The translations under genes and the position numbers were made by a program. The notes beneath the pieces were generated by a model. It worked only from the letters and a program-made list of their open reading frames with translations. It ran no database searches and was not told the DNA's origin. Below, one piece after another: positions 3,132-57,870 of a stretch of 64,000 nt of DNA; position 1 is the stretch's first letter; each line of letters begins with the position of its first letter. The DNA comes from Limnochordia bacterium (GTDB lineage Bacteria; Bacillota; Limnochordia; DTU080): the NCBI GenBank assembly GCA_050945315.1, contig JBMNSS010000001.1, positions 1,620-65,619 of the forward strand. The letters are read 5' to 3'.

Positions 3132-4898
3132 TTATCCAACTCGCGGAGGCATCAGAACGTAACTACGGTCTTTGTACTCCCGGTGCAAGAGGCGATGAGC
3201 TTCGGCAGAGTTGGGCTCCCCAAGACACTTCTCGTATAGCATCTTGATTTCCGGGTTCTCGTGCGAACGCCGTCGCGGCAGGTTCTTGTCAATCATATAG
3301 AGACTGTTCATCAGTCGATCCAGTGGCCACCCCTCGCCATAGGGCTGCCCGCCGCCGTTGATACAGCCTCCCGGACAAGCCATGACCTCGACCAGATGGT
3401 ACTCCTCCCAACCACCTTGGGCGAAGAAATTGCGAACGTTACGTAATCCGCTCAGCACCGCCACCTTGATCGTGATTCCGGCCACATCAACTTCGGTAGT
3501 CTTCACACCTTCCAGACCCCGAACCTCTTGGAAATCGGGATCGGCCAGTTCCTCATCTGTCACCATTTTATAGGCCGTACGCAATGCAGCCTCCGCCACA
3601 CCGCCGCTGGCTCCGAAGATTACCGCGGCCCCCGTGTAATCTCCGAGCACTCGATCGAATGGCATGGGTTCCAAGCTGGCCAAGTCGATGTACTCACGTT
3701 TGAACATCCGAATGAGTTCGCGGGTGGTCAGCACCACATTGACATCCCCGGGCGATACCTCGTTCAACTCCCATTTCTTGGCTGTACAGGGCATGAAAGA
3801 GACGACGAAAGAGTCTTTCTTGCTGGCACCTGAAGCATGCGCATACTCAGAGCGTAACAGAGCGCCCATCATCATCTGCGGAGACTTACAGGTCGAAAGG
3901 TGCTGAACCCGATCCGGATAGTACTCTTCCGCGAACTTAATCCATGCCGGGCAGCAGGAGGTCACCAGTGGGAAGGGGCCTCCGCTTTTTACTCGGCCGA
4001 CAAACTCTGCTGCCTCCTCCAGAATCGTGAGGTCAGCAGTGAAGTTCGTGTCAAAGACCTTGTCGAAACCGAGTCTCTTCAGTCCGGCTACCAGCTGTCC
4101 TTCGAAGTTCGTGCCAGGATCCATGCCGAAAGCTTGGGCTACACTGACTCGAACCGCCGGAGCTATCTGAGCCACTACATGTCTGTCCGGATCGGCCAAC
4201 GCGTCGTAAACCAGACAGGTGTCATCGCGCTCTACAAGGGCGGCCGTGGGGCAAACCCGCGTGCACTGTCCGCAATTCACACACTCAGACTCGCCTACTC
4301 CGGTGCCGAAAGCCACACCGATAACGGTTTCAAAGCCACGCTTTAGAGGCGTAATAGCGGCTACTGACTGCATGTCGTCACACACAGAGACGCAACGCTG
4401 GCACAACACACACTTCTCTGCGTCACGCACCAAGGAGAAGCTTGTTTCATCGCATTTTGCCAGTTGTCGTTGACCCCGGTAGCGGCGGTCGACACCGTAT
4501 TCGGCAGCCAGATCCTGCAGTTCGCATTCACCGTTGCGCTGACAGTAGAGACAATCTTCCGGATGATTGGCCAGAATCAGCTCCAAGACTACTTTGCGGG
4601 CCTGACGAATTCTGGGTGTCTGAGTGCGAACAACCATTCCCTCTGACACCGGTTGTGTACAAGAGGCCACCAGAGTGCGGCTGCCTTCTACTTCAACCAC
4701 ACACAGACGACAGGCACCGACTTCACGCAGGCCGTCCCAGTGACATAACGTCGGTACCGACACACCCGCTTCACGCAAGGCATACAACAGACTTTGATTG
4801 GCGTCTACCTCTACATCGCGTCCATCGACATTGATTGTCACCGGTTTTCGTTGTGTCACTTGATCAGTCACCGTGGTCCCGTTTCGAACCAGTTCCAT
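3132..4898 (-). CDS. hydA: [FeFe]-hydrogenase catalytic (large) subunit with N-terminal 2Fe-2S and 4Fe-4S ferredoxin-like domains
   Basis: H-cluster signatures TSCCPAW, FMPCTAKKWE and VEVMACPGGCINGGGQP, plus N-terminal Cys clusters. The start is moved to Met4 (MELV), which sits 9 nt after the GGGGAGG Shine-Dalgarno. Confidence 0.9.
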   Translation of the reverse strand: MELVRNGTTVTDQVTQRKPVTINVDGRDVEVDANQSLLYALREAGVSVPTLCHWDGLREVGACRLCVVEVEGSRTLVASCTQPVSEGMVVRTQTPRIRQARKVVLELILANHPEDCLYCQRNGECELQDLAAEYGVDRRYRGQRQLAKCDETSFSLVRDAEKCVLCQRCVSVCDDMQSVAAITPLKRGFETVIGVAFGTGVGESECVNCGQCTRVCPTAALVERDDTCLVYDALADPDRHVVAQIAPAVRVSVAQAFGMDPGTNFEGQLVAGLKRLGFDKVFDTNFTADLTILEEAAEFVGRVKSGGPFPLVTSCCPAWIKFAEEYYPDRVQHLSTCKSPQMMMGALLRSEYAHASGASKKDSFVVSFMPCTAKKWELNEVSPGDVNVVLTTRELIRMFKREYIDLASLEPMPFDRVLGDYTGAAVIFGASGGVAEAALRTAYKMVTDEELADPDFQEVRGLEGVKTTEVDVAGITIKVAVLSGLRNVRNFFAQGGWEEYHLVEVMACPGGCINGGGQPYGEGWPLDRLMNSLYMIDKNLPRRRSHENPEIKMLYEKCLGEPNSAEAHRLLHREYKDRSYVLMPPRVG

Positions 4899-4956
4899 AA
4901 AAGGCATCCTCCCCAGACCTGAAGATCACCCTAAACCCTGGTTTTTTCAACTCACG

Positions 4957-6900
4957 TCAGCCGGCGAGAGTTGTCTGAATACTACGACCCGTGATCGCAC
5001 CAAAGCTACAGACATCAGCACAATTGCCGCACCGGACACAAAGCTCTTGATCGATCACGTGTGGTTGACGTCTTTCGCCGCTGATGGCATCCGACGGACA
5101 CTCGCTCTTGCAGAGGCCGCAGCCGGTGCACTTCTCCGCGTCAATCACGTACGTCAGGAATTGTTTACATTGAGCGGCGGGACATATCTGATCGAGCAAG
5201 TGGGCTCGGTATTCATTCTCGAAGTGCTGCAGAGTCGATAGCACCGGATTCGGGGCCGTCTGACCCAGACCGCAGGCCGAGGTGTCTTTGATCACAGCCG
5301 CCAGTTCACGCAAAGCAGCCAAGAATCCCTCCGGATCAAAGGGTTCGTCCATGCCCAGCATGACTCGGATTTCAGTGGGAATATTCTCCGCTTCGGCATC
5401 GATCACGCGCTGGGGTGTGATAACCCGCTCAAGCATCTCATAAAGCCTTGTTGTCCCTTCTCTGCAGGGAGTGCATCGCCCACAAGACTCCGATTTTACG
5501 AAGCTCAAAAAGAACCGAGCGACCTCCACCATGCAGGTCTGGTCGTCCATAACCACAAGACCGCCTGAGCCCATCATCGCTCCGACCTTCAGCAAGGAGT
5601 CGTAATCGATGGGAGTGTCCAGGAGTCTGGCAGGTATACATCCACCGGAGGGGCCGCCTATTTGTGCCGCCTTGAATTCACGATTGTTGGCTACGCCGCC
5701 GCCCAGGTCATAGACGATCTCTCTCAAAGTAATCCCCATCGGTACTTCGATCAGGCCGCTGTTTTTCACTTTACCTGTCAATGAGAAGACCTTCGTCCCT
5801 TTGCTGCGCTCCGTGCCCACACCGGCAAACCATTCAGGCCCACGCGCAATGATATCCGGGACATTGGCCAAGGTCTCGACGTTGTTGATCAGTGTAGGGA
5901 ATCCCCAAAGCCCTTTGGACGACGGGAACGGTGGTTTGGGGCGGGGAATGCCTCGTTGGCCTTCGACGGAAGCCAGGAGTGCTGTCTCTTCGCCACAGAC
6001 GAACGCTCCGGCACCCATCTTAAGTTCAATGCTAAAGCTGAAGCCTGAACCCATGATGTTCTCGCCCAGGTAGCCGGCATTCTTCATCTGCTCAATGGCA
6101 TTCTTCAGTCTGGCGATCGCCAAGGGGTATTCGGCCCGGACGTATAGGTAGCCCTTTTGAGCCCCGATCGCATAGCCGGCAAGCAGCATGCCTTCCAAGA
6201 CGCGATGCGGATCTCCCTCCAGAAGACTGCGGTCCATGAACGCTCCCGGGTCGCCCTCATCGGCATTGCAGACAACGTATTTCTTCTCAGCTTTTTCCGC
6301 TGCAGTGAACTGCCACTTAAGGCCGGTGGGAAAACCTGCTCCGCCGCGTCCACGCAGTTGCGAGGCTTTCAACTGATCAATGACCCATTGCGTAGAATTC
6401 CCGACTGCCTTACGCAGGGCTTCATAGCCGCCCTCGGCAACGTATTCCTCCATGCTTTCAGGATCAATCCTGCCGCAATTGGCTAAGACACGCCGGCACT
6501 GCTTTGACAGAAAGGGCAGCTCCTCCATTGGAGGCACGGGCATTTGCTTGGCTTGTGCCTTGGGTTCGGGTTCGATCAAAGCCGTCATAGGCTCTTCTCC
6601 CAAAGCAGTTCCCAACAACATCTCGCCGGGAATGATCCCCTGACCCACATAGGAATCGATAATACGTATGAGGCCTTTCTTATCTACATTGCCGAAGGAC
6701 ACCCGGGAGAGTCCGGGAAGACGTACGTCCAGGATCGGTTCGCGTTCACAATAGCCCATGCATCCGACTGTCTTGACTTCAGCGTCCAGTCCACGACTCA
6801 CTATTTCAACCTGAAGTTGTTTGAGAATCTCATCCGCACCGGCAGCCAAGCCGCAGGTGCCCGCTCCGACATAGAAGACAATGCGACTCCCCTTTGACAT
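4957..6900 (-). CDS. hydB: NuoF-like flavoprotein subunit (FMN/NAD(P)H, 4Fe-4S) of multimeric [FeFe] hydrogenase
   Basis: GRGGAGFPTGLKW NADH/FMN-binding motif; N-terminal thioredoxin-like 2Fe-2S domain; C-terminal 2x CxxCxxCxxxCP ferredoxin. The ATG overlaps the hydC stop (TAATG). Confidence 0.9.
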   Translation of the reverse strand: MSKGSRIVFYVGAGTCGLAAGADEILKQLQVEIVSRGLDAEVKTVGCMGYCEREPILDVRLPGLSRVSFGNVDKKGLIRIIDSYVGQGIIPGEMLLGTALGEEPMTALIEPEPKAQAKQMPVPPMEELPFLSKQCRRVLANCGRIDPESMEEYVAEGGYEALRKAVGNSTQWVIDQLKASQLRGRGGAGFPTGLKWQFTAAEKAEKKYVVCNADEGDPGAFMDRSLLEGDPHRVLEGMLLAGYAIGAQKGYLYVRAEYPLAIARLKNAIEQMKNAGYLGENIMGSGFSFSIELKMGAGAFVCGEETALLASVEGQRGIPRPKPPFPSSKGLWGFPTLINNVETLANVPDIIARGPEWFAGVGTERSKGTKVFSLTGKVKNSGLIEVPMGITLREIVYDLGGGVANNREFKAAQIGGPSGGCIPARLLDTPIDYDSLLKVGAMMGSGGLVVMDDQTCMVEVARFFLSFVKSESCGRCTPCREGTTRLYEMLERVITPQRVIDAEAENIPTEIRVMLGMDEPFDPEGFLAALRELAAVIKDTSACGLGQTAPNPVLSTLQHFENEYRAHLLDQICPAAQCKQFLTYVIDAEKCTGCGLCKSECPSDAISGERRQPHVIDQELCVRCGNCADVCSFGAITGRSIQTTLAG

Positions 6901-14019: not shown

Positions 14020-15837
14020 TCAGTGTGAGCGAGATCGTTCGGACCGCCGCAAGACAGCTTTTCGGAGGCGAAACGCCTTCGGTGTCACCTCGAGCCATTC
14101 ATCCTCAGCCAGGTAGGCAAGGGTTTGTTCCAGGCTGAGGCGTTTTACGGGATTCAACTTGGCGGCAATCTCTGCGGTGCTGGCCCTGATATTGGTCACA
14201 TGCCTCTTCCTGCATACATTGATGTCCAGATCCTGAGCTCGGGAATGCTCGCCAACGATCATCCCCTCATAGACCTTCTCGCCGGGACTCACGAAAAGAA
14301 CACCGCGTTCTTGGGCATTCTCCAAGGCATAGGCGGTCACCTCTCCGGTCTCCCAGGCTACCAGGCTACCGGTTTGTCTGCCGGCGATACGTCCTTTGAA
14401 GGGCCCGTATCCGTGGAAGGTGTTATACATGATGCCATGCCCGCGAGTGGCGGTCAGCAACTCGGAAGTGAACCCGACAAGACCTCTCGCCGGCACCACG
14501 AACTCGAGTCTGGCATTGCCATTGGGAAGTTGTGAGACATCGCTCATCTCCCCTTTGCGTGCCCCGAGAAGCTCTATGACCACCCCCAGATGCTCCTGCG
14601 GCACCTCCACGCTCAGATCCTCAAGGGGTTCACAGTTCTTACCGTCTATCTCGCGCATGATCACCTCGGGTTTGGAGACCGAGAACTCATACCCTTCCCG
14701 GCGCATATTCTCTATCAAAATAGAGATATGCAACTCTCCGCGACCTGAAACTTGAAACGCATCAGGGCTCTCCGTCTCTTCTACGCGCAGTGCCGGATCA
14801 ATTCGTGCTTGGCGAAAGAGCCGCTCTCTCAAATGCCTTGACGTCAAGTATCGACCGTCCGTCCCCGCGAAGGGACTGTCGTTGACGCGAAAGATCACTG
14901 TCAGCGTTGGTTCGTCAACGCGCAGAGGAGGCAGGAATACCGGATGCTCAACCGAAGTGACGGTATCGCCGATGCGAATGTCATCAATGCCGGTCAAGGC
15001 TACGATTTCTCCGACATTCGCCTCCTCAACGGGAACCCGTCTCAGATGTTCAAACGTAAACACATTCGACAGCTTGGTCTGAATTGACTGCTGGCCGGGT
15101 CTTCCGACCACGACTGAGTCGGAAGCCAGTAACCGGCCGTTTAACACCCGTCCAATGGCGATTCGTCCCACATAGTCGTCGTAATCCAGCATAGCCACCT
15201 GGATCTGAAGCGGCAGATCATCTTGCCCTGACGGGGGCGGCACTGTATCGATCAGGCAGTCAAGAAGAGGCAGAATCTCACCGGTGGCGGATGCTACATC
15301 AGCCTGTGCGGTATGCAGATCAGCGTGAGCGACACCTGCCCGGCCGGAACCATATATGACCGGGAAATCCAGCTGATCGTCATCGGCTCCCAAAGCTATG
15401 AACAGATCCAATACGGCATCCAGTACACTTTCGGGTCGGGCGTCCGGGCGGTCGATTTTATTGATCATCAACACTATCTGTAAACGCTGCTCCAAAGCAT
15501 TCCTAAGCACGTAGCGCGTCTGAGGTTGCGGACCTTCGGCGGCATCTACCACTAACAACGCGCCATCCACCATTCCCAACACGCGCTGTACCTCACCCCC
15601 GAAGTCTACGTGCCCCGGAGTATCGACGATATTCAGCTTCACCCCACGATAGTAAGTCCCCGTGGTTTTGGCCAGTATGGTTATGCCCCGCTCTCGTTCA
15701 AGGGCATTGGAGTCCAGAATGCGGGAGCCTACCGTTTCACCCGCGCGAAACGCCCCGGTTTGCTTGAGAACGGCATCAACCAGGGTGGTCTTTCCGTGAT
15801 CTACGTGAGCGATGATGGCAATGTTTCTTAGTTCCAT
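14020..15837 (-). CDS. typA: translational GTPase TypA/BipA
   Basis: [22 protein letters not shown]1 motif, [13 protein letters not shown], and a BipA-specific C-terminal domain. The start is placed at the Met just before [12 protein letters not shown]. Confidence 0.9.
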
Positions 15838-16174
15838 GATTAATAGGCTAGCAGCACATGTACCGTCAGTCAAGCAAATCCGTGTGCGCTGTCAGTGATG
15901 TCCTGGCGTGAGTGAGAAGCTGAGGTGGATCACAGTGAAGGAGATCCAAAGGTTACTTGGGAAATATGTATTAGGTCGCTTGCCGGGAATCCGGGCTGTC
16001 CGGCAACTGATGCTATCAGCCTTGGGATCGGCGAACAGAATGCATGTTTCCTCAGACAACGGTTATATTACGAGAGGCTACCAGCCGACATTTTTTGGAA
16101 AGGTGGAATAATCTCTGCTGCCTTCCTATTCAACCCATAAGCCTATAAGAGTTGCCTGCCGGTCTGCAATTCTG

Positions 16175-23417: not shown

Positions 23418-24023
23418 TTACAGCTGCCAAAGGCAGCGGCTCATGATCTTCCGATAGATCCTGGAATTCTGCCGAAAAGACTCGTAATCCCGTTCGGCAA
23501 GAGCTTGATCGATCGCTGCCCTGGTCAAGATGGCTTGAACGGCCAGATCAATTTGTTCCCGAACGATCTCACGCAGCACGGCATCGACGTTGGCCACCGA
23601 CCTTTCAGGTAAGCTCGGGGATGACTCCAAGACATCCAGGTACCAAGCCGGCATCGATCCGCAGAATGAAAAAGTGACGTAAAGCTCACTTCGAAAGGTG
23701 CGTAAAGGCGCTATAGCCTCCATGGGCTCGTTAACACATAAATGACGTTCACGTCGCAGCCGGCGGATAAGCTCGCCGTTGACAATACGCACTTCCTCAC
23801 GTTGGTGAACTCCCAGTTCGAGTTCGAAGCCCACGCGAGGACTCCCTAACTCCGAAACAAGCATGGTGTTTGGTAAGTACTCCCGGTTCCGCACGAAGGT
23901 GATCCGCTTGAGAAGATCCGGCGTGTCTAGTATGAACTGCAGCAAATATTTGCTCATCGGATGCTTCAAAGGAGTGCGAATGAAGTTGCGGATAGCTAAC
24001 TCTTTTAGCTTCATCTTTCTCAC
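23418..24023 (-). CDS. hypothetical protein
   Basis: 201-aa ORF with no recognisable motif; coding-like composition. It lies downstream of lepB on the same strand. Confidence 0.45.
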   Translation of the reverse strand: MRKMKLKELAIRNFIRTPLKHPMSKYLLQFILDTPDLLKRITFVRNREYLPNTMLVSELGSPRVGFELELGVHQREEVRIVNGELIRRLRRERHLCVNEPMEAIAPLRTFRSELYVTFSFCGSMPAWYLDVLESSPSLPERSVANVDAVLREIVREQIDLAVQAILTRAAIDQALAERDYESFRQNSRIYRKIMSRCLWQL

Positions 24024-24131
24024 CCCGCTGTTGGTTCATTAGAATATATGGGCCAGGAGGGGTTTACATGCCTGCAGAAGTACCATGGAAAGGTATCTCG
24101 AAAGAGTAATCGTCAAGGCGGGAGGTAGTGC

Positions 24132-24890
24132 ATGCGCGTTACGTTCTTGGGAACAGGCACATCGCATGGCATCCCAGTGATAGGTTGTGACTGTTCCGTA
24201 TGTCGCTCGCCGCTGCCGGAGAATAATAGACTGAGATCAAGCATATGGTTGAATTTCGCCGAGCGGAACGTGGTGATTGATACCGGTCCTGAATTCCGAC
24301 TGCAAGCCCTGCGCCATGGGGTGCGCCGACTGGATGCCGTGCTTTTTAGCCACGCTCATGCTGATCACATTTTTGGCTTTGATGACATCCGCCGTTTTTG
24401 CCAACTACAGGGCGAAGCAATTTCGGTGTACGCCAGTCCGGAGACGCTTGACACGCTACGCTGTGCTTTTGGCTATATATTCGATCTTGATCGCAACGAT
24501 TGGACCATCCCCCGTGCGGTGCCACATGTAATTGATGGCCCTTTCTCCCTTTTTGGCCAAGACATCGAGCCATTGACGGTGTATCATGGCAAAGCATCGG
24601 TCACGGGTTTTCGTATCGGTGACTTCGCCTATGTCACCGATTGCAGCATGATCCCGGATCAGGCGATGGCTTCTCTGCAAAACCTGGAGGTGTTGGTGTT
24701 AGGTGCATTGCGATATAAGCCGCATCACACTCACTTCAGCATCGGGGAAGCGATTCAGGCCATCGAGACCCTACAGCCCAGACGCGCCTATCTCACACAT
24801 CTGTGTCACGAAGTGGACCATGCAGAGCTTCTCGCGTCATTACCCGCCGGTGTTCAGCCTGCTTATGACGGTTTGGTTGTTGATGTATGA
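24132..24890 (+). CDS. MBL-fold metallo-hydrolase (PhnP-like)
   Basis: LFSHAHADHIFG (HxHxDH) plus downstream His/Asp ligands; 252 aa; GGAGG Shine-Dalgarno. Confidence 0.85.
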   Translation: MRVTFLGTGTSHGIPVIGCDCSVCRSPLPENNRLRSSIWLNFAERNVVIDTGPEFRLQALRHGVRRLDAVLFSHAHADHIFGFDDIRRFCQLQGEAISVYASPETLDTLRCAFGYIFDLDRNDWTIPRAVPHVIDGPFSLFGQDIEPLTVYHGKASVTGFRIGDFAYVTDCSMIPDQAMASLQNLEVLVLGALRYKPHHTHFSIGEAIQAIETLQPRRAYLTHLCHEVDHAELLASLPAGVQPAYDGLVVDV

Positions 24891-24987
24891 TTGAGTGGCT
24901 TCGAACCGATTCGGACCCGACTGAGGCGTCTTATCAGTGAGCGGGAGCAATGGGCGCGACAACGGATAGAGACCGGGAGGGATCGAA

Positions 24988-26025
24988 GTGCCTAAGAGCC
25001 ATACACGTTTAGCTGCACTTCACATACCGCATGCGGATTCGGATGATTTGCATCGCGTCTGCGAGGTGTGCATGAACTTCTCGCCGACGATAGAACCCAC
25101 TCCTCCCCATGGTATCCTTGTCGACTTTTCCGGCAGTCGTCGTCCCGATCTTTTTTTGCTCCAAAGCGAAGCGGTTGCTGCTTGCCAAAAAAACGTATTT
25201 ATCAGCATGGCTTCTACAAGGTGGGTAGCCCGCTGCGCCGTCGCATATCTACAGCGGAAGTCTGCGAGCAGTTCTTTGCCAAAGCCTTTGACCATTGCCG
25301 ACAACGGCGAAAAAGGATTTTTGGCCCCTTTGTCCGTGAGATATCTGGCGCAGGGTGAGATTGCGGATGCCGAAAGGCTGATAGAGCGTCTTTTGGATTT
25401 GGGCATCTACACCTTTGATGATCTGGCAAGCGTACCACTCAAAGATCTCACCGCCCAATTTGGCACAGACCGGGGTCCTCTTTTGCACCGTTTGGCGACA
25501 GGGGTTGATCCCCGTACAGTTCGCCCCTTATACCCTCCGCGACAGGTGGTTGCTACATTCAGCGCGGCGCCTGACAGTCCCGGTATTTTAAACGCTTACG
25601 CGATCGATCAGGTATTGATTCATCTGAGCAATGAACTGGCCGCTGATTTGGCGCAACAAGGAATGGCAGCCCGGCGGATACGGCTTGAAATCACATGTCG
25701 GAAAGACGTTTTACACTTTTCTTGTTTTCTGCGGCAGCCTGCGTTTCAACAAGAAACCCTGCTGGAGGCGGCCAGGCGATTGTGGTCTTCGGCATCTGCC
25801 ATGGATCCCGTATTGGAGCTCAAGCTCTATGGTGAGAATCTCGAGCGTCCGCGAATTGAGCAAGCGGCCATATTTGACGCCCAAACAAGTATCAACAATG
25901 AGCTGGCAACTGTGGTGCGCGCCGTGCAAAACAGATTCGGTGTGCGAGCGCTGCAAAAAGCGAACCAACTCCCTCTTTCTCGCCGAGAGTTGGTTCGCTC
26001 AATGTGGGAACGCGAAAGACTGTGA
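24988..26025 (+). CDS. imuB: ImuB-like inactive Y-family DNA polymerase homologue (N-terminal polymerase-like part only)
   Basis: N-terminus LAALHIPHA...ILVDFSGS...; the FLAPLSVRYLAQGE and ERLLDLGIYTFDDLASVPLKDLTAQFG blocks parallel mycobacterial ImuB (FLAPLSIRQLA..., LWRMGLRTIGQFAQL...FG). It lacks the Y-family catalytic DMD/SIDE acidic residues. GTG start preceded by GGGAGGG. Only 345 aa. Confidence 0.65.
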   Translation: MPKSHTRLAALHIPHADSDDLHRVCEVCMNFSPTIEPTPPHGILVDFSGSRRPDLFLLQSEAVAACQKNVFISMASTRWVARCAVAYLQRKSASSSLPKPLTIADNGEKGFLAPLSVRYLAQGEIADAERLIERLLDLGIYTFDDLASVPLKDLTAQFGTDRGPLLHRLATGVDPRTVRPLYPPRQVVATFSAAPDSPGILNAYAIDQVLIHLSNELAADLAQQGMAARRIRLEITCRKDVLHFSCFLRQPAFQQETLLEAARRLWSSASAMDPVLELKLYGENLERPRIEQAAIFDAQTSINNELATVVRAVQNRFGVRALQKANQLPLSRRELVRSMWERERL

Positions 26026-26033
26026 ACAGCTAA

Positions 26034-27308
26034 TTAGCGACCTACTCCTTTGAGAAAGTAGACCGTGTCCAGGTGAACTCGCTCAGCAACATCCACAATG
26101 TCTTTTTTCGTTACACGCTTCAGGCGGACGATCAACTCCTCGGTTGTCTCTTTGACACCCTCCATTGACCCGCTCAGGTGCGTTATCATTTGCGCCAGAG
26201 GGTTATCTTGTGTCAGCAGAGCCTGTGCGATAAGCCTACTGCGTGTCGCATTCATCTCATCATCGGAGATGTCCCCTTGGCGGATGGCATCCACCTGCTT
26301 CAGCATTATCTCTAACGCTTGATCGTAATTTTTGGGATCAATACCGGCATATGCCAGCACATACCCCTTGTTTGCGTTGTAGCCTGAGCTCGCCTGATAG
26401 GCCAGGCTGGCCTTTTCACGCACATTGACAAACAGTTTTGAGTGCACGAAACCACCCAGAACACCGTTCAAAAAGTACATGGCACAGCGTTCAGCGTCCG
26501 AATAGGTAATGTCCGTACGGAAGCCGAGCACCAACCATCCCTGCCCCATCACTTCTTCATCAACGACTGTGCGAACCTGTGCTCTTCCGGGAAGGACTAC
26601 AGTCCTGGGCAGCGCTTTGGGAGCTCTCGTGGGTAAGGAAAAGCCACCTACCACTTTTTTCAGTTCATCGCGCTCCACATCGCCCACTATATAGATATCG
26701 ATAGGGGCCTCACGAATCTGTCTTGTGTGATTGCGCAGGAGAATCTGTGGTGTTAATTCCCGTACCTGTTCTTCCGTACCGAGTTCATGGAGCCGGAACG
26801 GTTCATCGCCGTACATTTCCTCGATACAGCGCAATATGGCCCATCTGGCCTTAACATTGATCAAAGAACGAATCCGTCCCACCTGCAATTGCTTCTCTTG
26901 CTCCACGTACTCGCCGGCCAACCCCCCGTTTTCTATGACGGGCGACAGAATCACTTCTCGTAATAGCCGCAAACCCTGACTCAAGATAGGCGTACCTACA
27001 TAGCGATCACCGGGGAGGTTGAGCAGAAACCAAGAAATCTGGCGATCCCCACGCTTTTGTACGCCCGTTCCCAGATGGGCTCCGTATAACGAGGCAAGTT
27101 CTCGCTCTAAAGCCATGGCTGTGGGCCATAGAGTGTTTCCCCGTCGCAGCACCCGGGGGAGAATACCCATCGCGGCCACATTCTCCGGTGAAAGCTCATT
27201 GTGGAAAAAGACAGCCGCGCTCGTACGTTTGAAGGTGGGCACAGCGTGCACAAAGAGCCGAACCTCCGGCCCCAGCGATATTTGTTGGAACCCTTGAGTC
27301 ATGCTCAT
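26034..27308 (-). CDS. M16-family peptidase, non-catalytic partner subunit
   Basis: Insulinase-fold pattern but no HxxEH; translationally coupled to the upstream M16 gene, whose stop is 2 nt before this start. Confidence 0.8.
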   Translation of the reverse strand: MSMTQGFQQISLGPEVRLFVHAVPTFKRTSAAVFFHNELSPENVAAMGILPRVLRRGNTLWPTAMALERELASLYGAHLGTGVQKRGDRQISWFLLNLPGDRYVGTPILSQGLRLLREVILSPVIENGGLAGEYVEQEKQLQVGRIRSLINVKARWAILRCIEEMYGDEPFRLHELGTEEQVRELTPQILLRNHTRQIREAPIDIYIVGDVERDELKKVVGGFSLPTRAPKALPRTVVLPGRAQVRTVVDEEVMGQGWLVLGFRTDITYSDAERCAMYFLNGVLGGFVHSKLFVNVREKASLAYQASSGYNANKGYVLAYAGIDPKNYDQALEIMLKQVDAIRQGDISDDEMNATRSRLIAQALLTQDNPLAQMITHLSGSMEGVKETTEELIVRLKRVTKKDIVDVAERVHLDTVYFLKGVGR

Positions 27309-27309
27309 A

Positions 27310-28608
27310 TCAGTGCCCTCCTTTCAGCGGCTCCACAATGGAAACCACACGATTATCTTCTCCGATGAGCTGCTCCAGACATTTCTGGGCATCCTCAAGA
27401 CGAACCTCATCAAGCAGCGTTCTCACATCCATAAGATCTAACTCGTTAAAACGATGAGTGATGTAAACACCGGCCAATTGCTCCGGATCATCTAGTAAAG
27501 CGGAAAAGGAACCTATTTCTTGGCGACGAACGGTCTCGAAGACTTCGGCCTGCAGACCTTCTTGGCAAGCTCGCCGCAGATTGGCGGTGATTTCCGTCAC
27601 AAAAGCGTCGACATCTTCTGTTTCGCCGCTGATCCATACATAACCGATACTCCGATACGACGAGTATCCGAAACGAAAATCTTCCGTGACGATGCCTTTT
27701 TCGTACAACTGCCAATAACCCGAGTTTACTTTTCCCAAGACCGCGCTCAAAGCGAGATCAGCGGCGATAAGCTGTTTATGATAGTCAGGGCTGTCAGCCG
27801 ATAAGGTGCCTTTGAATCCCATCATCACGAGAGGTCGGGAGACCTTGAGCTCAATTCTCGTCTCCGGATGGACTACGCTGTCTGGTTCCGCGGGAATAAC
27901 TCGGCTAATCGGTCCCCGTGGTGTGTAGTCTCTTGCCGCGAGATCCTTTTCCACCATTGAAAGCACCTCGGCAAAATCCAGCTCCCCGACCACAACGAGC
28001 ATCATGTTACTGGGATGGTAAAATGTATCGTGGCATTTGTAAAGAAGCTCCTTGTTGATACGGGCAATGGAATCGGGCGAGCCAATGGTTCGTATTCTGG
28101 CAGGATGCACATGGAACATGGATTCCATGAAGTTGTAGTAGACCATTCGCGAGGGACTGTCGAGTCCCGTTTGAATCTCTTGCCCGATGATCCCTTGCTC
28201 TTTGGCGACGCTTTCATCGGTGAAATACGGATTCTGCACGAAGTGGAGCAGCAGACTGAGTCCTTCGTTGAAGCGCTCTACCGTGGTAAAGTGGTACACC
28301 GTGTAATACGATCCCGTATAGGCGTTTGTAGTCATACCCATTTGCGAGAAACGCTGTGATACATCGGTGCCATCGGGTTCCTCGAACATCTTATGTTCGA
28401 GGAAGTGAGCAATACCGTCAGGGACATTCGTCGGTTGTGACTGTCCGGGTGTTATGAAGGTCGAATCCATGCCACCGTAATTTGTGGCCAGGGCGGCAAA
28501 TTTCTGTGCAAAGCCGGGTTTAGGAAGCAAGACCACGGTCAGCCCCGAAGGCAACCTGCGCTCCAGTACTTCCTGCCCCATCACCATCCTTTTCACATTC
28601 ACAAGCAA
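27310..28608 (-). CDS. M16-family zinc peptidase, catalytic subunit
   Basis: HFLEHKMFEE (HxxEH inverted zincin motif) with the downstream E ligand region. Confidence 0.85.
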   Translation of the reverse strand: MLVNVKRMVMGQEVLERRLPSGLTVVLLPKPGFAQKFAALATNYGGMDSTFITPGQSQPTNVPDGIAHFLEHKMFEEPDGTDVSQRFSQMGMTTNAYTGSYYTVYHFTTVERFNEGLSLLLHFVQNPYFTDESVAKEQGIIGQEIQTGLDSPSRMVYYNFMESMFHVHPARIRTIGSPDSIARINKELLYKCHDTFYHPSNMMLVVVGELDFAEVLSMVEKDLAARDYTPRGPISRVIPAEPDSVVHPETRIELKVSRPLVMMGFKGTLSADSPDYHKQLIAADLALSAVLGKVNSGYWQLYEKGIVTEDFRFGYSSYRSIGYVWISGETEDVDAFVTEITANLRRACQEGLQAEVFETVRRQEIGSFSALLDDPEQLAGVYITHRFNELDLMDVRTLLDEVRLEDAQKCLEQLIGEDNRVVSIVEPLKGGH

Positions 28609-28750
28609 CGTCTCCTCCTATATGTGTTCCGCTAAACCGTATAGTGCCTCTTCTAAAGAGGATTGACCCCAGTGATCTTTTCACGGTGTTTGGCTACAAC
28701 GGCGTCTATTCCCTTCAAAAATTTCCAGGATCCGGTCATGGCAGCTTACT

Positions 28751-28800
28751 TGACGCCCCCGAACACCTGTTGTATGATGAGCGCACCAAACACCTGTTCT
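28751..28800 (+). promoter_or_regulatory. sigma-A-type promoter with two tandem GAAC-N4-GTT-type boxes (putative LexA/SOS operator)
   Basis: TTGACG (28751-56), 16 nt, TATGAT (28773-78) with an upstream TG. CGAACACCTGTTGT (28760-73) fills the spacer, and a near-identical CAAACACCTGTTCT sits at 28787-28800. Confidence 0.5.
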
Positions 28801-28815
28801 TATGTGGGGGGTGTC

Positions 28816-29070
28816 ATGCCTTTGAGCAGACTCATCAATCAACGTATCAATGCAACTTCCGACCGTCATGGGGCCCCCTTGCGTTTTTCTTGGCATACCA
28901 ACTGGCATCGTGTCACGCGCATATATGAAACATGGCGTGATACCGGCAGCTGGTGGGAAGGTGAAGCCGAAAAGGTATTTTACCTGCTACAGACCGATGA
29001 CGGCGGTACCTACGAAGTATATTTTGACCTCCAAGAAAAATCATGGTACCTTTACAAAATCATTGATTGA
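28816..29070 (+). CDS. small protein resembling the ImuB C-terminal (DnaE2/ImuA-interaction) region
   Basis: 84 aa from an ATG preceded by GGGGGGTG. W/Y-rich block WHRVTRIYETWRDTGSWWEGEAEKVFYLLQTDDGGTYEVYFDLQEKSWYLYKIID matches the pattern recalled for ImuB C-termini. Its stop is 13 nt before the dnaE2 ATG. Confidence 0.45.
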   Translation: MPLSRLINQRINATSDRHGAPLRFSWHTNWHRVTRIYETWRDTGSWWEGEAEKVFYLLQTDDGGTYEVYFDLQEKSWYLYKIID

Positions 29071-29083
29071 GACGGTGTCATCC

Positions 29084-32000
29084 ATGTATGCTCACCTGCA
29101 TACTCATTCGCCATTCTCATTTCTTGACGGCGCAGCGTCTATGGAGTCATTGCTTACTCGCGCCGCGGAGATCGGATGCCGGGCATTGGCCGTTACTGAT
29201 CACAATAATCTTTCAGTCACAGTACGCTTCCATAAATTAGCTGCTGAGATAGGCATAAAACCCATTCAAGGATGTGAAATCACTATCGATAACGGTTGTC
29301 ACCTCACCCTTCTTTGTCAAAACCGTACGGGCTATGCCAATCTCTGCCGCTTGGTTACCCGAGCTCATCTTGACGCACCGCGTGGGTTACCCCAGGTCTC
29401 CCGCAGACTTTTGGAAGAGCACAGTGAGGGCCTCATCGCTTTGTCCGGATGTCGTCACGGCGAAGTTGCCGCTTTGATGTTGCAGGGTCAAAACCGGCAG
29501 GCGCTGGAGGCGGCTTCTGCTTATGCGTCTGCCTTTCCCGGACGTTTTTATATCGAGGTTCAAGATAATCTTCTCCCTCGCACCCGCTCGCTTAATCGTC
29601 ATTTGCGTGATCTGGCAGAATATCTTGATTTGCCCATGGTAGCTACCGCCAACGTACACTATGCTTACAAAGAACAATTTCCCGTTCACGACATACTTAC
29701 GTGCGTGCGTACTTTGACCTGTCTCCAAAGCATACATCCCGCGAGACGGCTCAATGCGGAAAACTATCTCCTCACGTCGGAAGAGATGGCGGATCGTTTT
29801 CGCGATTTTCCGCAAGCGTTACGCGGCACGCTTGAGATAGCTGACCTGTGTGAGACGGCCATTCCCTTGGGTGAGCGTCTGTTTCCTTTCTTCAACACAC
29901 CTGACGGCAGCAGTGCCATTCAGTTCTTGCGGCAACTCACGTTCCAAGGTGCACAAGAGCGTTACGGATCGGTTACGGCGGCCATACGCGAAAGATTGGA
30001 ACACGAATTACGTATCATCGCCGCTCTTGATGTGGCGGACTACTTTCTCGTCGCCTGGGATGTCGCCCGTTTTGCGCGTGAACGAGGCATCTGCTATGCG
30101 GGACGCGGCTCCGCTGCGGATTCGGCCGTTGTATATTGCCTTTATATAACAAATGTTGATGCCATCAGCAGAGGTTTGCTTTTTGAGCGGTTTCTCAGTT
30201 TGGAGCGGGCTCAACAGCCGGATATCGATATCGATTTTGATGCCCGTTACCGGGATGATATAGCGCGCTATGTCTACGCCAAATATGGCGAAGATCATGT
30301 CGCCTCCGTATGCACATATCATACCTATCATGCTCGTTCGGCTTTGCGGGACTTTGGCAAAGCCATGGGCCTTCCGCTTCAAGAAGTGGAAAAAGTGGCC
30401 AAGGCGTTTCCGCATGTCCCTGCAGATGGCATACGCAAAGCATTGATTCGCTATCCCGAGCTGCAAAACAGCGGCCTGTCTTTTGAGCGCTATGAGAAGC
30501 TCTTTGACCTTGTTGAACAGGTGGCCGGTTTTCCGCGCCATATCGGTACACACTTGGGCGGCTTGGTGATCAGTAACCGCCCCCTGGTAGAAGTGAGCCC
30601 ATTGCAGATGGCCGCCAAGGGCATGCGCATCATTCAATTCGACAAAGATGACATAGAAGAACTGGGACTGATGAAACTGGATCTACTGTCACTGCGCACC
30701 TTGTCAGCCGTTCAGACTGCTATAAAAGACATTAACACCAAACAGACAGCTACAGGTGAGCCTCTCGTAGAATACGCCACAATCCCACTGGACGATGCTT
30801 ACACGTATGCAGCCCTCAATCATGGAGAGAGCATTGGTGCTTTTCAACTGGAGAGTCCCGCGCAAAGAGCGTTGCAGAGCCGCTTGGGGGCAGAAAACAT
30901 AGAAGACATTGTGGCCAGCATTGCTCTGATTCGTCCCGGACCCATACAGGGGAATATGGTCGAGCCTTTTATCGCTTACAGGAACGGCCATTGTGCTGTC
31001 AGTTACGTTCATCCTGACTTGGAGCCCATTCTCGCCAAGACCTATGGTGTCGTTCTTTTCCAGGAGCAGGTGATCGAGATTGCGGTCAAGATCGCCGGCT
31101 TCAGCCCCGGTGAGGCCGATCAGCTGCGCAAAGCGATGACTCATTTTCGCTCACAAAAAAAGATGGATCAGCTTGGACGGGAGTTCATAGCCAAGGCCAC
31201 AAAGCGCGGTGTTGACCAAGAGGTGGCCGAAACTCTGTATTCTTACATTGTCAGCTATGCAGGTTATGGTTTTTGCGAAGCTCATGCCGCGGCTTTTTCC
31301 GATACAGCCTATAAAACGGCCTATCTGGTAACTCATTACCCGGCTGAGTTTTTTGCAGCCATTCTCAGTCACCAGCCAATGGGCTATTATCCGCCGGCTA
31401 CGATCGTTGCAGAAGCCAAACGCCGAGGTGTGCGCATTCTGCCTCCGGACGTGAACAGAAGCGGGCTGCGCTTCACCGTAGAGAACGGAGCCATCAGGGT
31501 CTCATTGACACAGGTGAAAGGTTCATCACCTGCCATAGCTCGATCAGTGATCTCCTCCAGAGCGGAAAGCCCGTTTCAATCCTTCAGGGACTTTTGCCGA
31601 CGCGTTCATCTCCCGCGCGATGTCATAAAAAACTTGATTCAGGCGGGAGCATTTGATACGTTGTATGCCAACAGGCGCCAGTTGCTCTGGCAGCTCCAAG
31701 AGACTCTGGCCATGTCCGGAGAAAAGGGGCAACCTGCATTGCCTTTCGGATCGGAGCGCGGCGAGATCCGCCAAGAGCTATCTGATTATCCGGCGTTTGA
31801 AAAAGCGATACATGAGGTGACTCTGCTCGGGTTCTCTCCCGAAAAGCATCTTATGCAATTTTTCCGTCCGCAACTGGTGCAACGCGGCATAAAAACCTGC
31901 GGTGAAATAAGCAGTGGTCACGTGGAAGGTGCGGTTGGGGTAGCGGGCATAGTGATTCGCCCACACCGACCTCCGACCAAGAGCGGACGCACCGTAGTCT

Positions 32001-33088: not shown

Positions 33089-33264
33089 ATATCCCCCTAT
33101 TCTCGCTCTGGACTCATGTCTATTCTTTCGTCAATCCTATCTGGGCTCCTTGTTATTCACGCCAAGCAAAGCGAAGCATCTCACTCAGGGGCAGGAATAC
33201 TCCGCTGTTTCAGCGAACAGGAGTCACGAATAAAGCCCTATTGTCTAGGAGGCTTGAGTCGTCT

Positions 33265-34002
33265 ATGGTGCTCATGTCGAATAACAGGCGGACACCCTTC
33301 GCTTGCCACATTGCTTTTCTCCTCTGTGTGCTTATCATCGCCATTAGTATGCCTTTGCTTGCTGCGACGCGGGCACCGGCTACAAGCAAGGCTATGCCTA
33401 CCCGAAATGCTCCGAGCATAGCCGCCATATTACATAACGTTGAGAACTGTTTTTCCGAAATCAAGGATCTCACCGGTGTCGTCGACCTTGAGCAGTACAG
33501 CACTGATGGTTCGGTCGTTCAAGTTCAGACGACGGTTCAGGCTGTATTACCCAGCTTATTGCGCTTGGACTTCGTAAAGCCGGAGACTTTTGCGGGCACG
33601 TTTTACGTCCTCGACCGTAACACAAATCAGATAATGCAGTATTCACCCATCACCGAGCAGGTGATCGTCTCCTCCATAGAGCAGACACTGTCCGAGCGAT
33701 TTGTGCCTACAACTGTAGAGCAGTTGTTCAGCCTTCCCTCACCTGAAGACTACAACCTTAGCGTGCTTTCCACCGAACAGCATTTGGTCGGTGTCTTGGC
33801 CAAGGCCAAGAACGATCCCGCGTCTCCTTACTTCCATTTTTGGATCGACCAAGACACCTGGATAGTCTCGAGAATGCACGTTTTTGAAGCTCAGGGGCAA
33901 CCCCTTTTCACGATTCGGCTGCGTGATGTCAAGATCAACCGCAGTCTTGTCGAGGCTCAACTGAAGAGACTGCCTGCCGGAGCCGTCACGGTCTATCGTT
34001 GA
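33265..34002 (+). CDS. secreted LolA-like/DUF4367-like protein
   Basis: Signal peptide HIAFLLCVLIIAISMPLLAA, then an all-beta LolA-like pattern; AGGAGG Shine-Dalgarno 9 nt before the ATG at 33265. Confidence 0.5.
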   Translation: MVLMSNNRRTPFACHIAFLLCVLIIAISMPLLAATRAPATSKAMPTRNAPSIAAILHNVENCFSEIKDLTGVVDLEQYSTDGSVVQVQTTVQAVLPSLLRLDFVKPETFAGTFYVLDRNTNQIMQYSPITEQVIVSSIEQTLSERFVPTTVEQLFSLPSPEDYNLSVLSTEQHLVGVLAKAKNDPASPYFHFWIDQDTWIVSRMHVFEAQGQPLFTIRLRDVKINRSLVEAQLKRLPAGAVTVYR

Positions 34003-34042
34003 GTGCATAGCTGAGTACATATACGAAGGGAATCCTGCAAGG

Positions 34043-37000
34043 ATGAGCATCAGTCAAACCGTCGTTCGACGCCCAGTGGCGGTAGCCATGGGCGTTGCAG
34101 TCATTCTTCTGTTGGGTATTCTGTCGCTCACGCGTCTGGAGTTGGATCTCCTCCCCAATTTGAGCCTGCCTATCGTCGGAGTGATCACCGTATATCCGGG
34201 GGCAGCCCCGAGTGCAGTTGAAGGGGATATCACTACCCCGATGGAAGCGGCCGTGGCTACCGTCTCAGGGCTGAAATCGTTGGAAAGCTATAGCATGGAG
34301 AATGCATCCGTGATAGTGGCCAATTTTGGCTGGGGCGTGGATTCGATGCAGGCCATCAATGATATCAAGACCCAGCTGGCCACTGTGACCCATCTGTTAC
34401 CTGCTGATGCCATGGAACCTGTGGTGACCAACGTTGATCCACGTATGCTTCCCGTCATGAAGATTGGCGTCACAGGCCTTGATGATATCACAGCTCTCAC
34501 CAAAGCGGCTGAGGAGCATCTCATAGGTCGGATCGAGCAAATCCCGGGAGTGGCCAGAGTAGGCCTTGCCGCCGGAGTACGTCCTGAAATCTCCGTGTTT
34601 TTTGATACAGAAGCACTGCGAGCGAGCAACACCCCTCCGGCGATGCTCTACGAGCTTCTCAGACAGCAAAACGCTCTTATACCCGCCGGTGTCTTGGAGG
34701 ACAACAGCGTTCGCTACCATGTAAGAGTCGGCAATCCTCTAAGCAGCGTGGAAGAGATTCGCGATCTGGTTATAGGGGAGAAAAAAACGGCGGGAGTTGA
34801 GGCCGTCGGACTCGCCGCCCTTATTCCTCAGATGCTGTTTCTGAAAGACGTGGCCACTGTTGTAGAGGGAACCAGCCCACAGGAGTCCTATGCACGGGTA
34901 GACGGTGAGCCGGCTGTCATTTTACAGGTCTACAAACAATCAGGTGCGGGCAGTGTTTCCGTGTCTCGGGCTGTGCGAAGTGCATTGGCAGAGCTCAATC
35001 AAGACATGGATCACGAGATTCAGTTGTGGGTAGTGGGCGATCAATCAGAGTTCATCATAGACGCGCTGAACAACGTGAGAGATGCCGCCATAGTAGGCGC
35101 CGTGTTGGCGGTGGCGGTGCTCCTTCTGTTTCTGCGCAGTCTGCGCAGCATCCTAGTGGTAGCCATCTCTATTCCCCTGTCTATAGTGGCCGCTCTGATC
35201 ATGATGTACGCCAGTGATCTCACCCTCAACCTGCTTAGCATGGGAGGACTTGCCCTGGGCATTGGGTCCTTGGTCGACAACTCGATTGTCGTCCTTGAGA
35301 GTATAATGCGGCACCGACAACAAGGTCTGAGCGCCCAAAAAGCGGCTGAGATCGGCACCTCCAAGGTTGCTCTGGCTATATCAGCCGGAACCGTGACGAC
35401 CGTAGTGGTCTTTTTGCCCCTGGCCTTCCTGGAGTCTACCGCGGGCCGATGGTTCCGCGATACGGCCTTGACTGTCACCTTTTCTCTGCTGGCGTCTATG
35501 CTGGTGGCCGTTACCGTGGTTCCTGCCGCAGCCGGACGTTTCCTGAGAAAACCGTTGCGCCATACTGCGGACGAAACCTCCTTCGGGTGGATTGAACGGT
35601 TGAAAGAAAGGTATCTGCGAAGTCTCAGTCGGCTGCTGAATCGTCCGGTTTGGCTTTGGGCTTTGGCGTTGGTGATGGTCGTCGCCGGTTTGAGCGCTCC
35701 CCGCTATATGCCTTTGGAGCTTCTGCCTAGCGTAGACGGAGGGGCGATCAACGCCACTTTAACCATGCCGGCCGGAACGCCGATTCGAGTGACCAACGGT
35801 GTTGCCGGGCAAATCGAAAAGACCGTGACTCAAATCGAGGATGTCATCTCTGTGTGGTCTCAGTTGGGCCAAGACAGCGATGATGTCGTCCAGCTTTTCT
35901 ACGGAACCGGGCCGCATGTGGCCAAGATGCAGTTTCTCTTGCAGCCAAGAATGCAGCGGGAACGATCCATAGGAGACATCGCCGATGAGATAAGGCAAGC
36001 GGTCGAGGGAATCGACTTGTTGGGCGGTCATCTGAGTATTAGTACGGAGCGCATGACAGATGCCCTCGGTGAGGCTTTCTCTCCCGGGGTCACCATTCAG
36101 GTGAGCGGAAAGGATCTTGATGCTCTCGAAACTCAGGCCGATCGCATAGCTCAGGGCTTGAAAGATGCAGGCGGATTTACCGAGATCACTACATCGGTAG
36201 ATCAAAGGCAACCCGAGTTGCTTTTTACCGTCGACCGGACAAAAGCACTCCTGGGCAGTATGACTACCAATGTCGTAGGGATAACCCTTCGCGGGGCCTT
36301 GAGCGGTCTTGAAGCCACTCGCATACAGCGCAACGGAGAGAGCATCCCGGTTGTTTTGCGAGCAAAGCCGGAAGAAGTCGATGGCATTGAGGCCCTTCTT
36401 CAGATGTCTATCCAGGGAGTCTCGGGCACCGGACAAGATCCTGTGCCTGCGGTGCGTTTCGGGCGGGTGGCCACCGCGGAAGAGACCACAGGACCGGTGA
36501 CAATTCAGCATGTTGATCGTGTGAGAACGGTAACCGTCCACGCTCGTCTGGACGGAATAGACTTGAGTGAAGCAAAACGGAGAGTCTCGGACATCATCGA
36601 CGGTCTTGAGGTTCCTGCACAGATCGGTGTCCGTCTCGCCGGAGTTCATGATACCATCCAGGAAGCTGTAGATGAGCTCACATGGGTGCTCATGCTGGCC
36701 ATTCTGTTGGTATACATGGTAATGGCCGCTCAGTTTGAATCGCTCTTGTATCCGTTGATCGTCATGATTGCCGTTCCGCTTGGCCTGGGAGGCGGCCTTG
36801 TCTGTCTGTGGATTTCAGGTCAAAGCATTGGTGTCTCCGGGCTGATGGGCTTGATAGTCCTGACGGGTGTTGTGGTGAACAACGGCATCGTTATGGTCGA
36901 TGCGGCCAACCAGGCGCGGCGCGACGGAGCTGATCTTGATCAGGCCGTTCTCATGGCCGCCGAGCAGAGATTGCGACCGATTCTCATGACCTCCTTGACC

Positions 37001-37186
37001 ACCATCTTTGGCTTGATACCTCTTGCGTTGGGCTACGGAGAAGGGACCGAGTTGCAGAGACCATTGGCCATCGCCTATATGGGAGGAATGGTCTTTTCGA
37101 CACTGCTTACTCTGTTTCTCGTCCCCTCCGCCTATCGTCTGCTCACGCTTCGTCGGGCTGAGACTCCGAGTCAGGAGACTCTGTGA
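34043..37186 (+). CDS. RND-superfamily efflux transporter permease (AcrB/SwrC-like)
   Basis: 1047 aa with 12 TM helices, two large periplasmic loops and an AcrB-family internal repeat. Confidence 0.9.
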   Translation: MSISQTVVRRPVAVAMGVAVILLLGILSLTRLELDLLPNLSLPIVGVITVYPGAAPSAVEGDITTPMEAAVATVSGLKSLESYSMENASVIVANFGWGVDSMQAINDIKTQLATVTHLLPADAMEPVVTNVDPRMLPVMKIGVTGLDDITALTKAAEEHLIGRIEQIPGVARVGLAAGVRPEISVFFDTEALRASNTPPAMLYELLRQQNALIPAGVLEDNSVRYHVRVGNPLSSVEEIRDLVIGEKKTAGVEAVGLAALIPQMLFLKDVATVVEGTSPQESYARVDGEPAVILQVYKQSGAGSVSVSRAVRSALAELNQDMDHEIQLWVVGDQSEFIIDALNNVRDAAIVGAVLAVAVLLLFLRSLRSILVVAISIPLSIVAALIMMYASDLTLNLLSMGGLALGIGSLVDNSIVVLESIMRHRQQGLSAQKAAEIGTSKVALAISAGTVTTVVVFLPLAFLESTAGRWFRDTALTVTFSLLASMLVAVTVVPAAAGRFLRKPLRHTADETSFGWIERLKERYLRSLSRLLNRPVWLWALALVMVVAGLSAPRYMPLELLPSVDGGAINATLTMPAGTPIRVTNGVAGQIEKTVTQIEDVISVWSQLGQDSDDVVQLFYGTGPHVAKMQFLLQPRMQRERSIGDIADEIRQAVEGIDLLGGHLSISTERMTDALGEAFSPGVTIQVSGKDLDALETQADRIAQGLKDAGGFTEITTSVDQRQPELLFTVDRTKALLGSMTTNVVGITLRGALSGLEATRIQRNGESIPVVLRAKPEEVDGIEALLQMSIQGVSGTGQDPVPAVRFGRVATAEETTGPVTIQHVDRVRTVTVHARLDGIDLSEAKRRVSDIIDGLEVPAQIGVRLAGVHDTIQEAVDELTWVLMLAILLVYMVMAAQFESLLYPLIVMIAVPLGLGGGLVCLWISGQSIGVSGLMGLIVLTGVVVNNGIVMVDAANQARRDGADLDQAVLMAAEQRLRPILMTSLTTIFGLIPLALGYGEGTELQRPLAIAYMGGMVFSTLLTLFLVPSAYRLLTLRRAETPSQETL

Positions 37187-57684: not shown

Positions 57685-57870
57685 CTACCAACTAGCCTTC
57701 GTTACTCCTGGGATCTGGCCCTGATGGGCTAGCTCCCTAAAGCAAATACGGCACATCTGAAAATCTCGAATAAAGCCCCGCGGACGACCACAAATGCGGC
57801 AACGATTTGTATGGCGAACCGCGTACTTAAGCGATCCCTTTTTTCTGACGATCTTCGATTTCTTGGCCAC
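57685..57870 (-). CDS. rpsN: 30S ribosomal protein S14 type Z (Zn-ribbon)
   Basis: 61 aa; [20 protein letters not shown] (C4). Confidence 0.95.

Follow-up and report, generated by a model that had tools for sequence, protein, structure and literature searches.

The promoter of a two-gene ImuB-C-DnaE2 operon in the 64-kb stretch of DNA analysed here (the window) carries a pair of imperfect inverted repeats, boxes 1 and 2, that are very probably LexA operators of the GAAC-N4-GTTC type. The comparisons described below support the reading that they are an ordinary Gram-positive-type SOS operator pair, attached to a mutagenesis cassette of a known kind, in a previously undescribed lineage; we infer that LexA is the protein that binds them, that it represses the operon, and that DNA damage induces it. 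For this phylum, both the GAAC-N4-GTTC motif and the control of DnaE2 cassettes by LexA are textbook matters, and the dnaE2 box pair in itself raises no new question, SOS control being the expected way to keep such polymerases off until damage occurs. Its interest is that the SOS regulon provisionally gains a stand-alone ImuB-C/DnaE2 operon, from an uncultured bacterium of anaerobic digesters, and that canonical LexA boxes are found to precede the Kyrpidia-type mutasome cassette across many Bacillota, which lends in-silico support to published proposals. In Firmicutes and Actinobacteria GAAC-N4-GTTC is well established as the LexA motif (PMC4951493), and LexA regulation of DnaE2 cassettes is known from many phyla (PMC6511836).

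The intergenic region ahead of the operon is 207 nt long and extends from a minus-strand M16 peptidase gene (longest ORF start 28608) to the plus-strand ATG at 28816. A promoter scan of 28300-29300 found one sigma-70-like site, TTGACG/TATGAT, which matches 10 of the 12 consensus positions (Table 1). An earlier note on this DNA had called it a strong promoter with a 16 nt spacer and an upstream TG; the hexamers stand, but the spacer is 17 nt, and the TG, although present, abuts TATGAT directly and is therefore out of the TGn register of an extended -10. An extended -10 promoter was accordingly rejected, no TG being in register in the scan. As the note had said, one box lies in the promoter spacer: box 1 fills it, and its final T is the first base of the -10 hexamer. 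The second copy, which had been put 13 nt downstream of the -10, is also present but starts 8 nt after it, so that box 2 would cover the transcription start (about +2 to +15), which we place at about 28785. Each box has, as previously counted, one mismatch to GAAC-N4-GTTC (7 of 8 core positions), and the extended consensus AACAnnTGTT is matched in full by both. They also share the identical 10-mer AACACCTGTT that had been noticed before, whose only two occurrences in the window are these, at 28762-71 and 28789-98; the direct repeat to which it belongs reaches 13 nt (CCGAACACCTGTT and CCAAACACCTGTT), 27 nt start to start. An Rfam search of 28500-29200 matched no RNA family.

Table 1. Features of the candidate SOS promoter and of the mutagenesis cassette genes (positions in the window)
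Feature	Position	Strand	Basis or remarks
MBL-fold hydrolase gene	24132-24890	+	one unit with the PolY-like gene 24988-26025
Y-family-polymerase-like (ImuB-like) protein, 345 aa	24988-26025	+	Pfam: IMS_C only
Two M16 peptidase genes	26034-28608	-	lie between the PolY-like gene and ImuB-C-dnaE2
-35 hexamer TTGACG	28750-28755	+	promoter scan
Box 1 CGAACACCTGTTGT	28760-28773		candidate LexA-type operator, GAAC-N4-GTTG, within the -35/-10 spacer
-10 hexamer TATGAT	28773-28778	+	promoter scan; 17 nt from -35
Box 2 CAAACACCTGTTCT	28787-28800		candidate LexA-type operator, AAAC-N4-GTTC, 8 nt past -10
Ribosome-binding site GGGGGGTG, G-rich	28806-28813	+	read from sequence, ahead of ATG 28816; kept in the alignment of lineages
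DUF6504 protein = stand-alone ImuB-C, 84 aa	28816-29070	+	Pfam PF20114, E = 4e-10, 40.3 bits vs 24.2 cut-off
DnaE2-type Pol III alpha homologue, 1031 aa	29084-32179	+	Pfam PHP, DNA_pol3_alpha, finger, HHH_6 and OB domains

The boxes were scored with a symmetric 18-nt weight matrix made only from 35 unique boxes that precede homologous cassettes of other Bacillota genomes (consensus (A/C)C(C/A)GAACA(T/A)(A/T)TGTTC(G/T)G(T/G)). Among the 63,983 window positions scored, box 1 ranks first with 13.2 bits and box 2 second with 10.5 bits. The training sites had been picked for perfect cores, so arm mismatches are heavily penalized, and the CC centre of the window boxes is uncommon in the training set, where the two central positions have C frequencies of 0.13 and 0.05. 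The third match, ATGGAACATGGATTCCAT at 28111-28128 (7.9 bits), is an 18-nt near-palindrome within M16 peptidase coding sequence; it is retained with one change in the closest related lineage (88% identity, see below), and is probably a matter of coding constraint and not an operator.

Single strings one mismatch away from GAAC-N4-GTTC are not rare, as the window has 24 of them against 26.5 expected from shuffles, and by that count the two boxes might be a chance resemblance, a short local duplication with no regulatory role. The pair itself is another matter. Sites of at least 10.5 bits are expected singly about 0.7 times per simulated 64 kb, but two of them no more than 60 nt apart turned up in only 1 of 200 simulated 64-kb sequences (boxes 1 and 2 are 27 nt apart), and the boxes overlap the promoter, are conserved in three lineages and represent a motif strongly enriched at homologous cassettes, all of which makes a chance origin very improbable. 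Outside called ORFs, the one-mismatch matches in the window are box 1, box 2 and one at 57688.

The first gene of the operon encodes a DUF6504 protein, and dnaE2 starts 13 nt past its stop codon. Stand-alone DUF6504-like proteins have been identified as ImuB-C, which is the C-terminal beta-barrel through which ImuB contacts DnaE2 (PMC6511836); a literature search for DUF6504 by name found no mention of it. The second protein has the Pol III alpha domain set, and its best NCBIfam match is 'error-prone DNA polymerase' (923.8 bits, slightly below the 939 cut-off), in agreement with the DnaE2-type polymerase that had been recognized downstream of the boxes. The 345-aa Y-family-like protein is a full-length homologue of the product of the gene immediately 5' of DUF6504 in 45 other loci; no catalytic N-terminus was detected in it, and its alignment to DinB profiles begins only at about position 86. 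Its gene lies 2.8 kb upstream of ImuB-C-dnaE2 in a different transcription unit and is thus not part of the same operon. This split layout is common to the window and the 88% lineage (loci L002-L011 and L015), and because the cassette is split ImuB-C-dnaE2 needs a promoter of its own, which is the one bearing the two boxes. No SOS box was found 5' of the MBL-fold or Y-family-like genes (24024-24987), the best matrix score in 23951-25000 being 0.1 bit; since the Y-family-like gene at 24988 has no box, the cassette is not regulated as one unit.

A representative-library search recovered 379 relatives of the small protein, mostly of about 80 aa, and a genome scan with a 12-sequence DUF6504 alignment gave 77 loci, nearly all from Bacillota (Syntrophomonadaceae, Thermincola, Limnochordia and others). 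The usual gene order in these 77 loci is a PolY-like gene (340-420 aa), DUF6504 and then DnaE2. Boxes are mostly absent directly 5' of DUF6504 there, because that gene is internal to the operon, and are present 5' of the first operon gene. A perfect GAAC-N4-GTTC occurs no more than 2.2 kb upstream of DUF6504 in 57 of 75 loci (the 77 minus the two closest relatives), against 3 of 75 in an equal-sized downstream control; chance alone would give about 2.4 over all upstream sequence. The same boxes recur, in the same pattern, in an independent set of metagenome loci; a metagenome scan for closer relatives of the window recovered only the known 88% lineage.

The canonical CGAACAnnTGTTCG boxes of these homologous cassettes occupy the same two promoter positions as the window boxes. 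The box is inside the spacer, right after TTGAC, in for example L021, L027, L033, L055, L061, L064 and L065, and it lies 5-11 nt past TATAAT in L017, L019, L022, L032, L038, L039, L043 and L053; the L017 box and window box 2 are each 8 nt from the -10. The spacer position holds the only box in about a dozen relatives, and in two loci both positions are filled, 27 nt start to start in L025, as in the window, and 24 nt apart in L026. Together with matrix ranks 1 and 2 and the conservation of box 2, these positions support the SOS operator pair that the earlier note had proposed.

Cassettes that have been broken up differently are found in two further loci. In L023 an inserted 220-aa gene parts dnaE2 from DUF6504, and dnaE2 has its own strong box (CCAGAACATTTGTTCGGT, 3436-3453) while a further box precedes the PolY-like gene, making this a second case in which the fragments of a split cassette each keep an SOS box. 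L070 is the opposite, with a box on the detached PolY-like gene and none on DUF6504-dnaE2.

The only record of the identical 84-aa protein is on a 2.8-kb Logan contig. An 88%-identical relative is found in the anaerobic-digester MAGs 'Firmicutes bacterium' GCA_012522115.1 and 'Clostridia bacterium DTU080', and a Limnochordia MAG has one with 71% identity. We aligned the promoters of these three lineages and counted identities segment by segment. TTGACG is invariant across all orthologous loci aligned, and the -10 is TATCAT in the 88% lineage (L002) and TATGAT in L012. Relative to the 88% lineage, box 1 is identical at 14 of 14 positions and the preceding 4 nt at 1 of 4; box 2 is identical at 13 of 14, and the sole change in its 12-nt core is in the N4 spacer, where ACCT becomes ACTT, nearer the usual consensus. 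Relative to the 71% lineage (L012/L016), the -35 is identical at 6/6 positions, the rest of the -10 at 5/5 and box 2 at 13/14, as against 2/8 in the 8 nt that precede box 2 and about 40% in the upstream intergenic sequence, which is effectively unaligned. Box 1 agrees there at 11/14 positions, its left arm being GCAC instead of CGAA (GCACCACCTGTTGT) with CACCTGTTGTATGAT retained. By these counts the boxes are conserved at orthologous promoters above the neutral background.

The loss of the box 1 left arm in L012/L016 means that box 1 may be weak or dispensable. One could go further and suppose that box 2 alone works, and that box 1 is Cheo-like largely because its right part is constrained as spacer and -10-proximal sequence; the survival of CACCTGTTGTATGAT beside a changed left arm would fit this, as would the many relatives in which a single box suffices. 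We regard this as quite unlikely, because box 1 has the top matrix score of the window, because its 14/14 identity in the L002 lineage stands next to 1/4 in the preceding 4 nt, and because the spacer is where the only box lies in about a dozen relatives and one of the two boxes in L025 and L026.

Two other sequences near these promoters deserve mention. The 9 nt at 28685-28693, GGTGTTTGG, repeat CCAAACACC, the left part of box 2, exactly in inverted orientation and match the left part of box 1 at 8/9 positions. They form a half-site only, 65 and 92 nt upstream of the boxes and towards the divergent M16 peptidase promoter, are conserved in the 88% lineage and are not alignable in the 71% lineage; with about 0.2 expected, this could be a chance match. 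In L016, the Limnochordia MAG, the M16 gene and DUF6504-dnaE2 are parted by an inserted segment that encodes a 356-aa multi-wHTH protein, and a near-perfect box (CGATCATGTGTTCG, 3895-3908, 15.8 bits) lies immediately 5' of its gene, which may be a mobile-element gene under SOS-type control.

The earlier note had pointed out that the ACCT spacer is GC-richer than is typical and that the repressor might not be LexA. This doubt is now weaker. L086 has TTGACT-CCGAACACCTGTTCGGT-TATAAT, in which the N17 spacer holds a perfect box with an ACCT centre (CGAACACCTGTTCG), and L017 carries CGAACACCAGTTCG; as the ACCT centre occurs inside perfect boxes, a GC-rich spacer is no argument against LexA. We note that the L086 promoter with its box (5548-5585) is followed, at 5743-6267, by a Cys-rich, Zn-ribbon-like ORF of 63 aa and a DUF6504 gene of 95 aa with no dnaE2 after them, so that here an SOS-type box precedes an orphan ImuB-C.

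A different repressor with a preference for AACACCTGTT, be it an HTH-S24 protein, a paralogue of canonical LexA or some unrelated dimeric factor, would account for the unusual CC centre, for the 13-nt repeat common to both boxes and for the one base by which each misses the canonical core, and operator switching has a precedent in related cassettes that have an HTH_3-S24 gene and ACACC-N3-GGTGT. Such a repressor is nevertheless unlikely here. The two boxes are the window's best two matches to a matrix of canonical boxes and are placed exactly as the canonical boxes of relatives are; the centre becomes CT in the L002 lineage with the site kept, and the same centre is found in the perfect Cheo box of L086. 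Their arms and spacing are unlike ACACC-N3-GGTGT, and no regulator gene adjoining the ImuB-C-dnaE2 operon was found in the ORF list or by Pfam. What speaks against canonical LexA is that family searches of the larger ORFs, with tblastn for LexA, found no lexA, recA or uvr gene within the window; tblastn with B. subtilis LexA against the window and a set of related loci gave only HTH_3-S24 paralogues, in eight loci.

The cassettes with the HTH_3-S24 gene form a second type. In L020, L034, L042, L046 and L050, and possibly also in L049, L056 and L073, a reduced PolY-like gene (167-192 aa) is followed by DUF6504 and DnaE2; the reduced protein has IMS_C alone (Pfam, with L020 the only one scanned). 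A divergent gene for an HTH_3 + Peptidase_S24 repressor lies alongside (Pfam on L042 and L020). These cassettes have no Cheo box and instead have two copies of the palindrome (T)CACC-N3-GGTG(TA) about 100-250 nt upstream of the first gene, the first of which abuts a TACAAT -10 (in L042 the copies are TCCACCAATGGTGTACAAT and TTCACCGATGGTGTAAAAT). Such an arrangement suggests a dedicated repressor of the CI/LexA-like kind that has its own operator, and with some cassettes under an HTH_3-S24 repressor and ACACC-N3-GGTGT, operator switching would occur in the cassette family. The HTH_3-S24 genes of L020, L034, L042, L046 and L050 can be likened to the 'non-canonical LexA' of Bacteroidetes, which is of the HTH(XRE)-S24 kind (PMC8565304); the window differs in having no such gene nearby and a different motif. 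The window boxes were also considered as an ACACC-N3-GGTGT operator, and this was rejected because the arms are different, the spacing is N4 and there is no S24 gene nearby.

It is usual for B. subtilis promoters such as those of lexA and recA to have more than one box, and for a box to have a mismatch in one arm. The LexA (DinR) Cheo boxes of B. subtilis and of other Firmicutes and Actinobacteria (CGAACRNRYGTTCG) are likewise GAAC-N4-GTTC inverted repeats over the promoter of a DNA-damage gene; the window pair, as a candidate of this class, differs in that both boxes are imperfect and have a CC centre, and in that it belongs to an uncultured Limnochordia-like lineage. If LexA acts on the pair as proposed, then in the undamaged cell a LexA dimer bound to box 1 would occupy the -35/-10 spacer and deny RNA polymerase the promoter, and any polymerase that bound all the same would be stopped from initiating by another dimer on box 2, at the transcription start. 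Upon DNA damage RecA filaments would trigger the self-cleavage of LexA, both boxes would be vacated and the mutagenic polymerase would be made. With one arm mismatch in each box, the pair probably compensates for a weaker affinity of the single sites. The box centres are 27 bp apart, or about 2.6 helical turns, so face-to-face cooperativity is not obviously favoured.

The imuA-imuB-dnaE2 cassettes, including the split imuA'-imuB / dnaE2 arrangement of Mycobacterium tuberculosis, likewise have an SOS-boxed DnaE2 and separate transcription units (PMC6511836). The window, in contrast, has no ImuA, its ImuB is replaced by a Y-family-like protein plus a stand-alone ImuB-C, and its boxes are on the ImuB-C-dnaE2 half only. 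Closer to it is the operon of inactive PolY, stand-alone ImuB-C and DnaE2 of the Kyrpidia tusciae type (PMC6511836; PMC12926913), the 'DnaE2-iPolY-ImuBC-RecA' complex of which includes the same three proteins as the window encodes and whose layout prevails among the 77 related loci. Unlike it, the window and its close relatives have the two opposite-strand M16 genes between the PolY-like gene and ImuB-C-dnaE2. If the model is right, the lack of a recognizable box at the PolY-like gene means that SOS control here extends to only half of the mutasome. A bolder version holds that the mutasome genes are regulated separately, with the CC-centred degenerate box pair read by a LexA of shifted spacer preference or by a LexA paralogue and the Y-family-like partner escaping SOS control. 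It would, if true, be a new regulatory logic of mutasome assembly, but we think it improbable.

Elsewhere in the window, 3132-6900 encodes a group A6 [FeFe] hydrogenase and a NuoF-like subunit, TypA/BipA is encoded at 14020-15873, and a LolA-like gene and an AcrB-type gene form a pair at 33241-37186. The small minus-strand ORFs from about 49.3 kb to the window end resemble a ribosomal-protein cluster, as judged from ORF sizes and order only.
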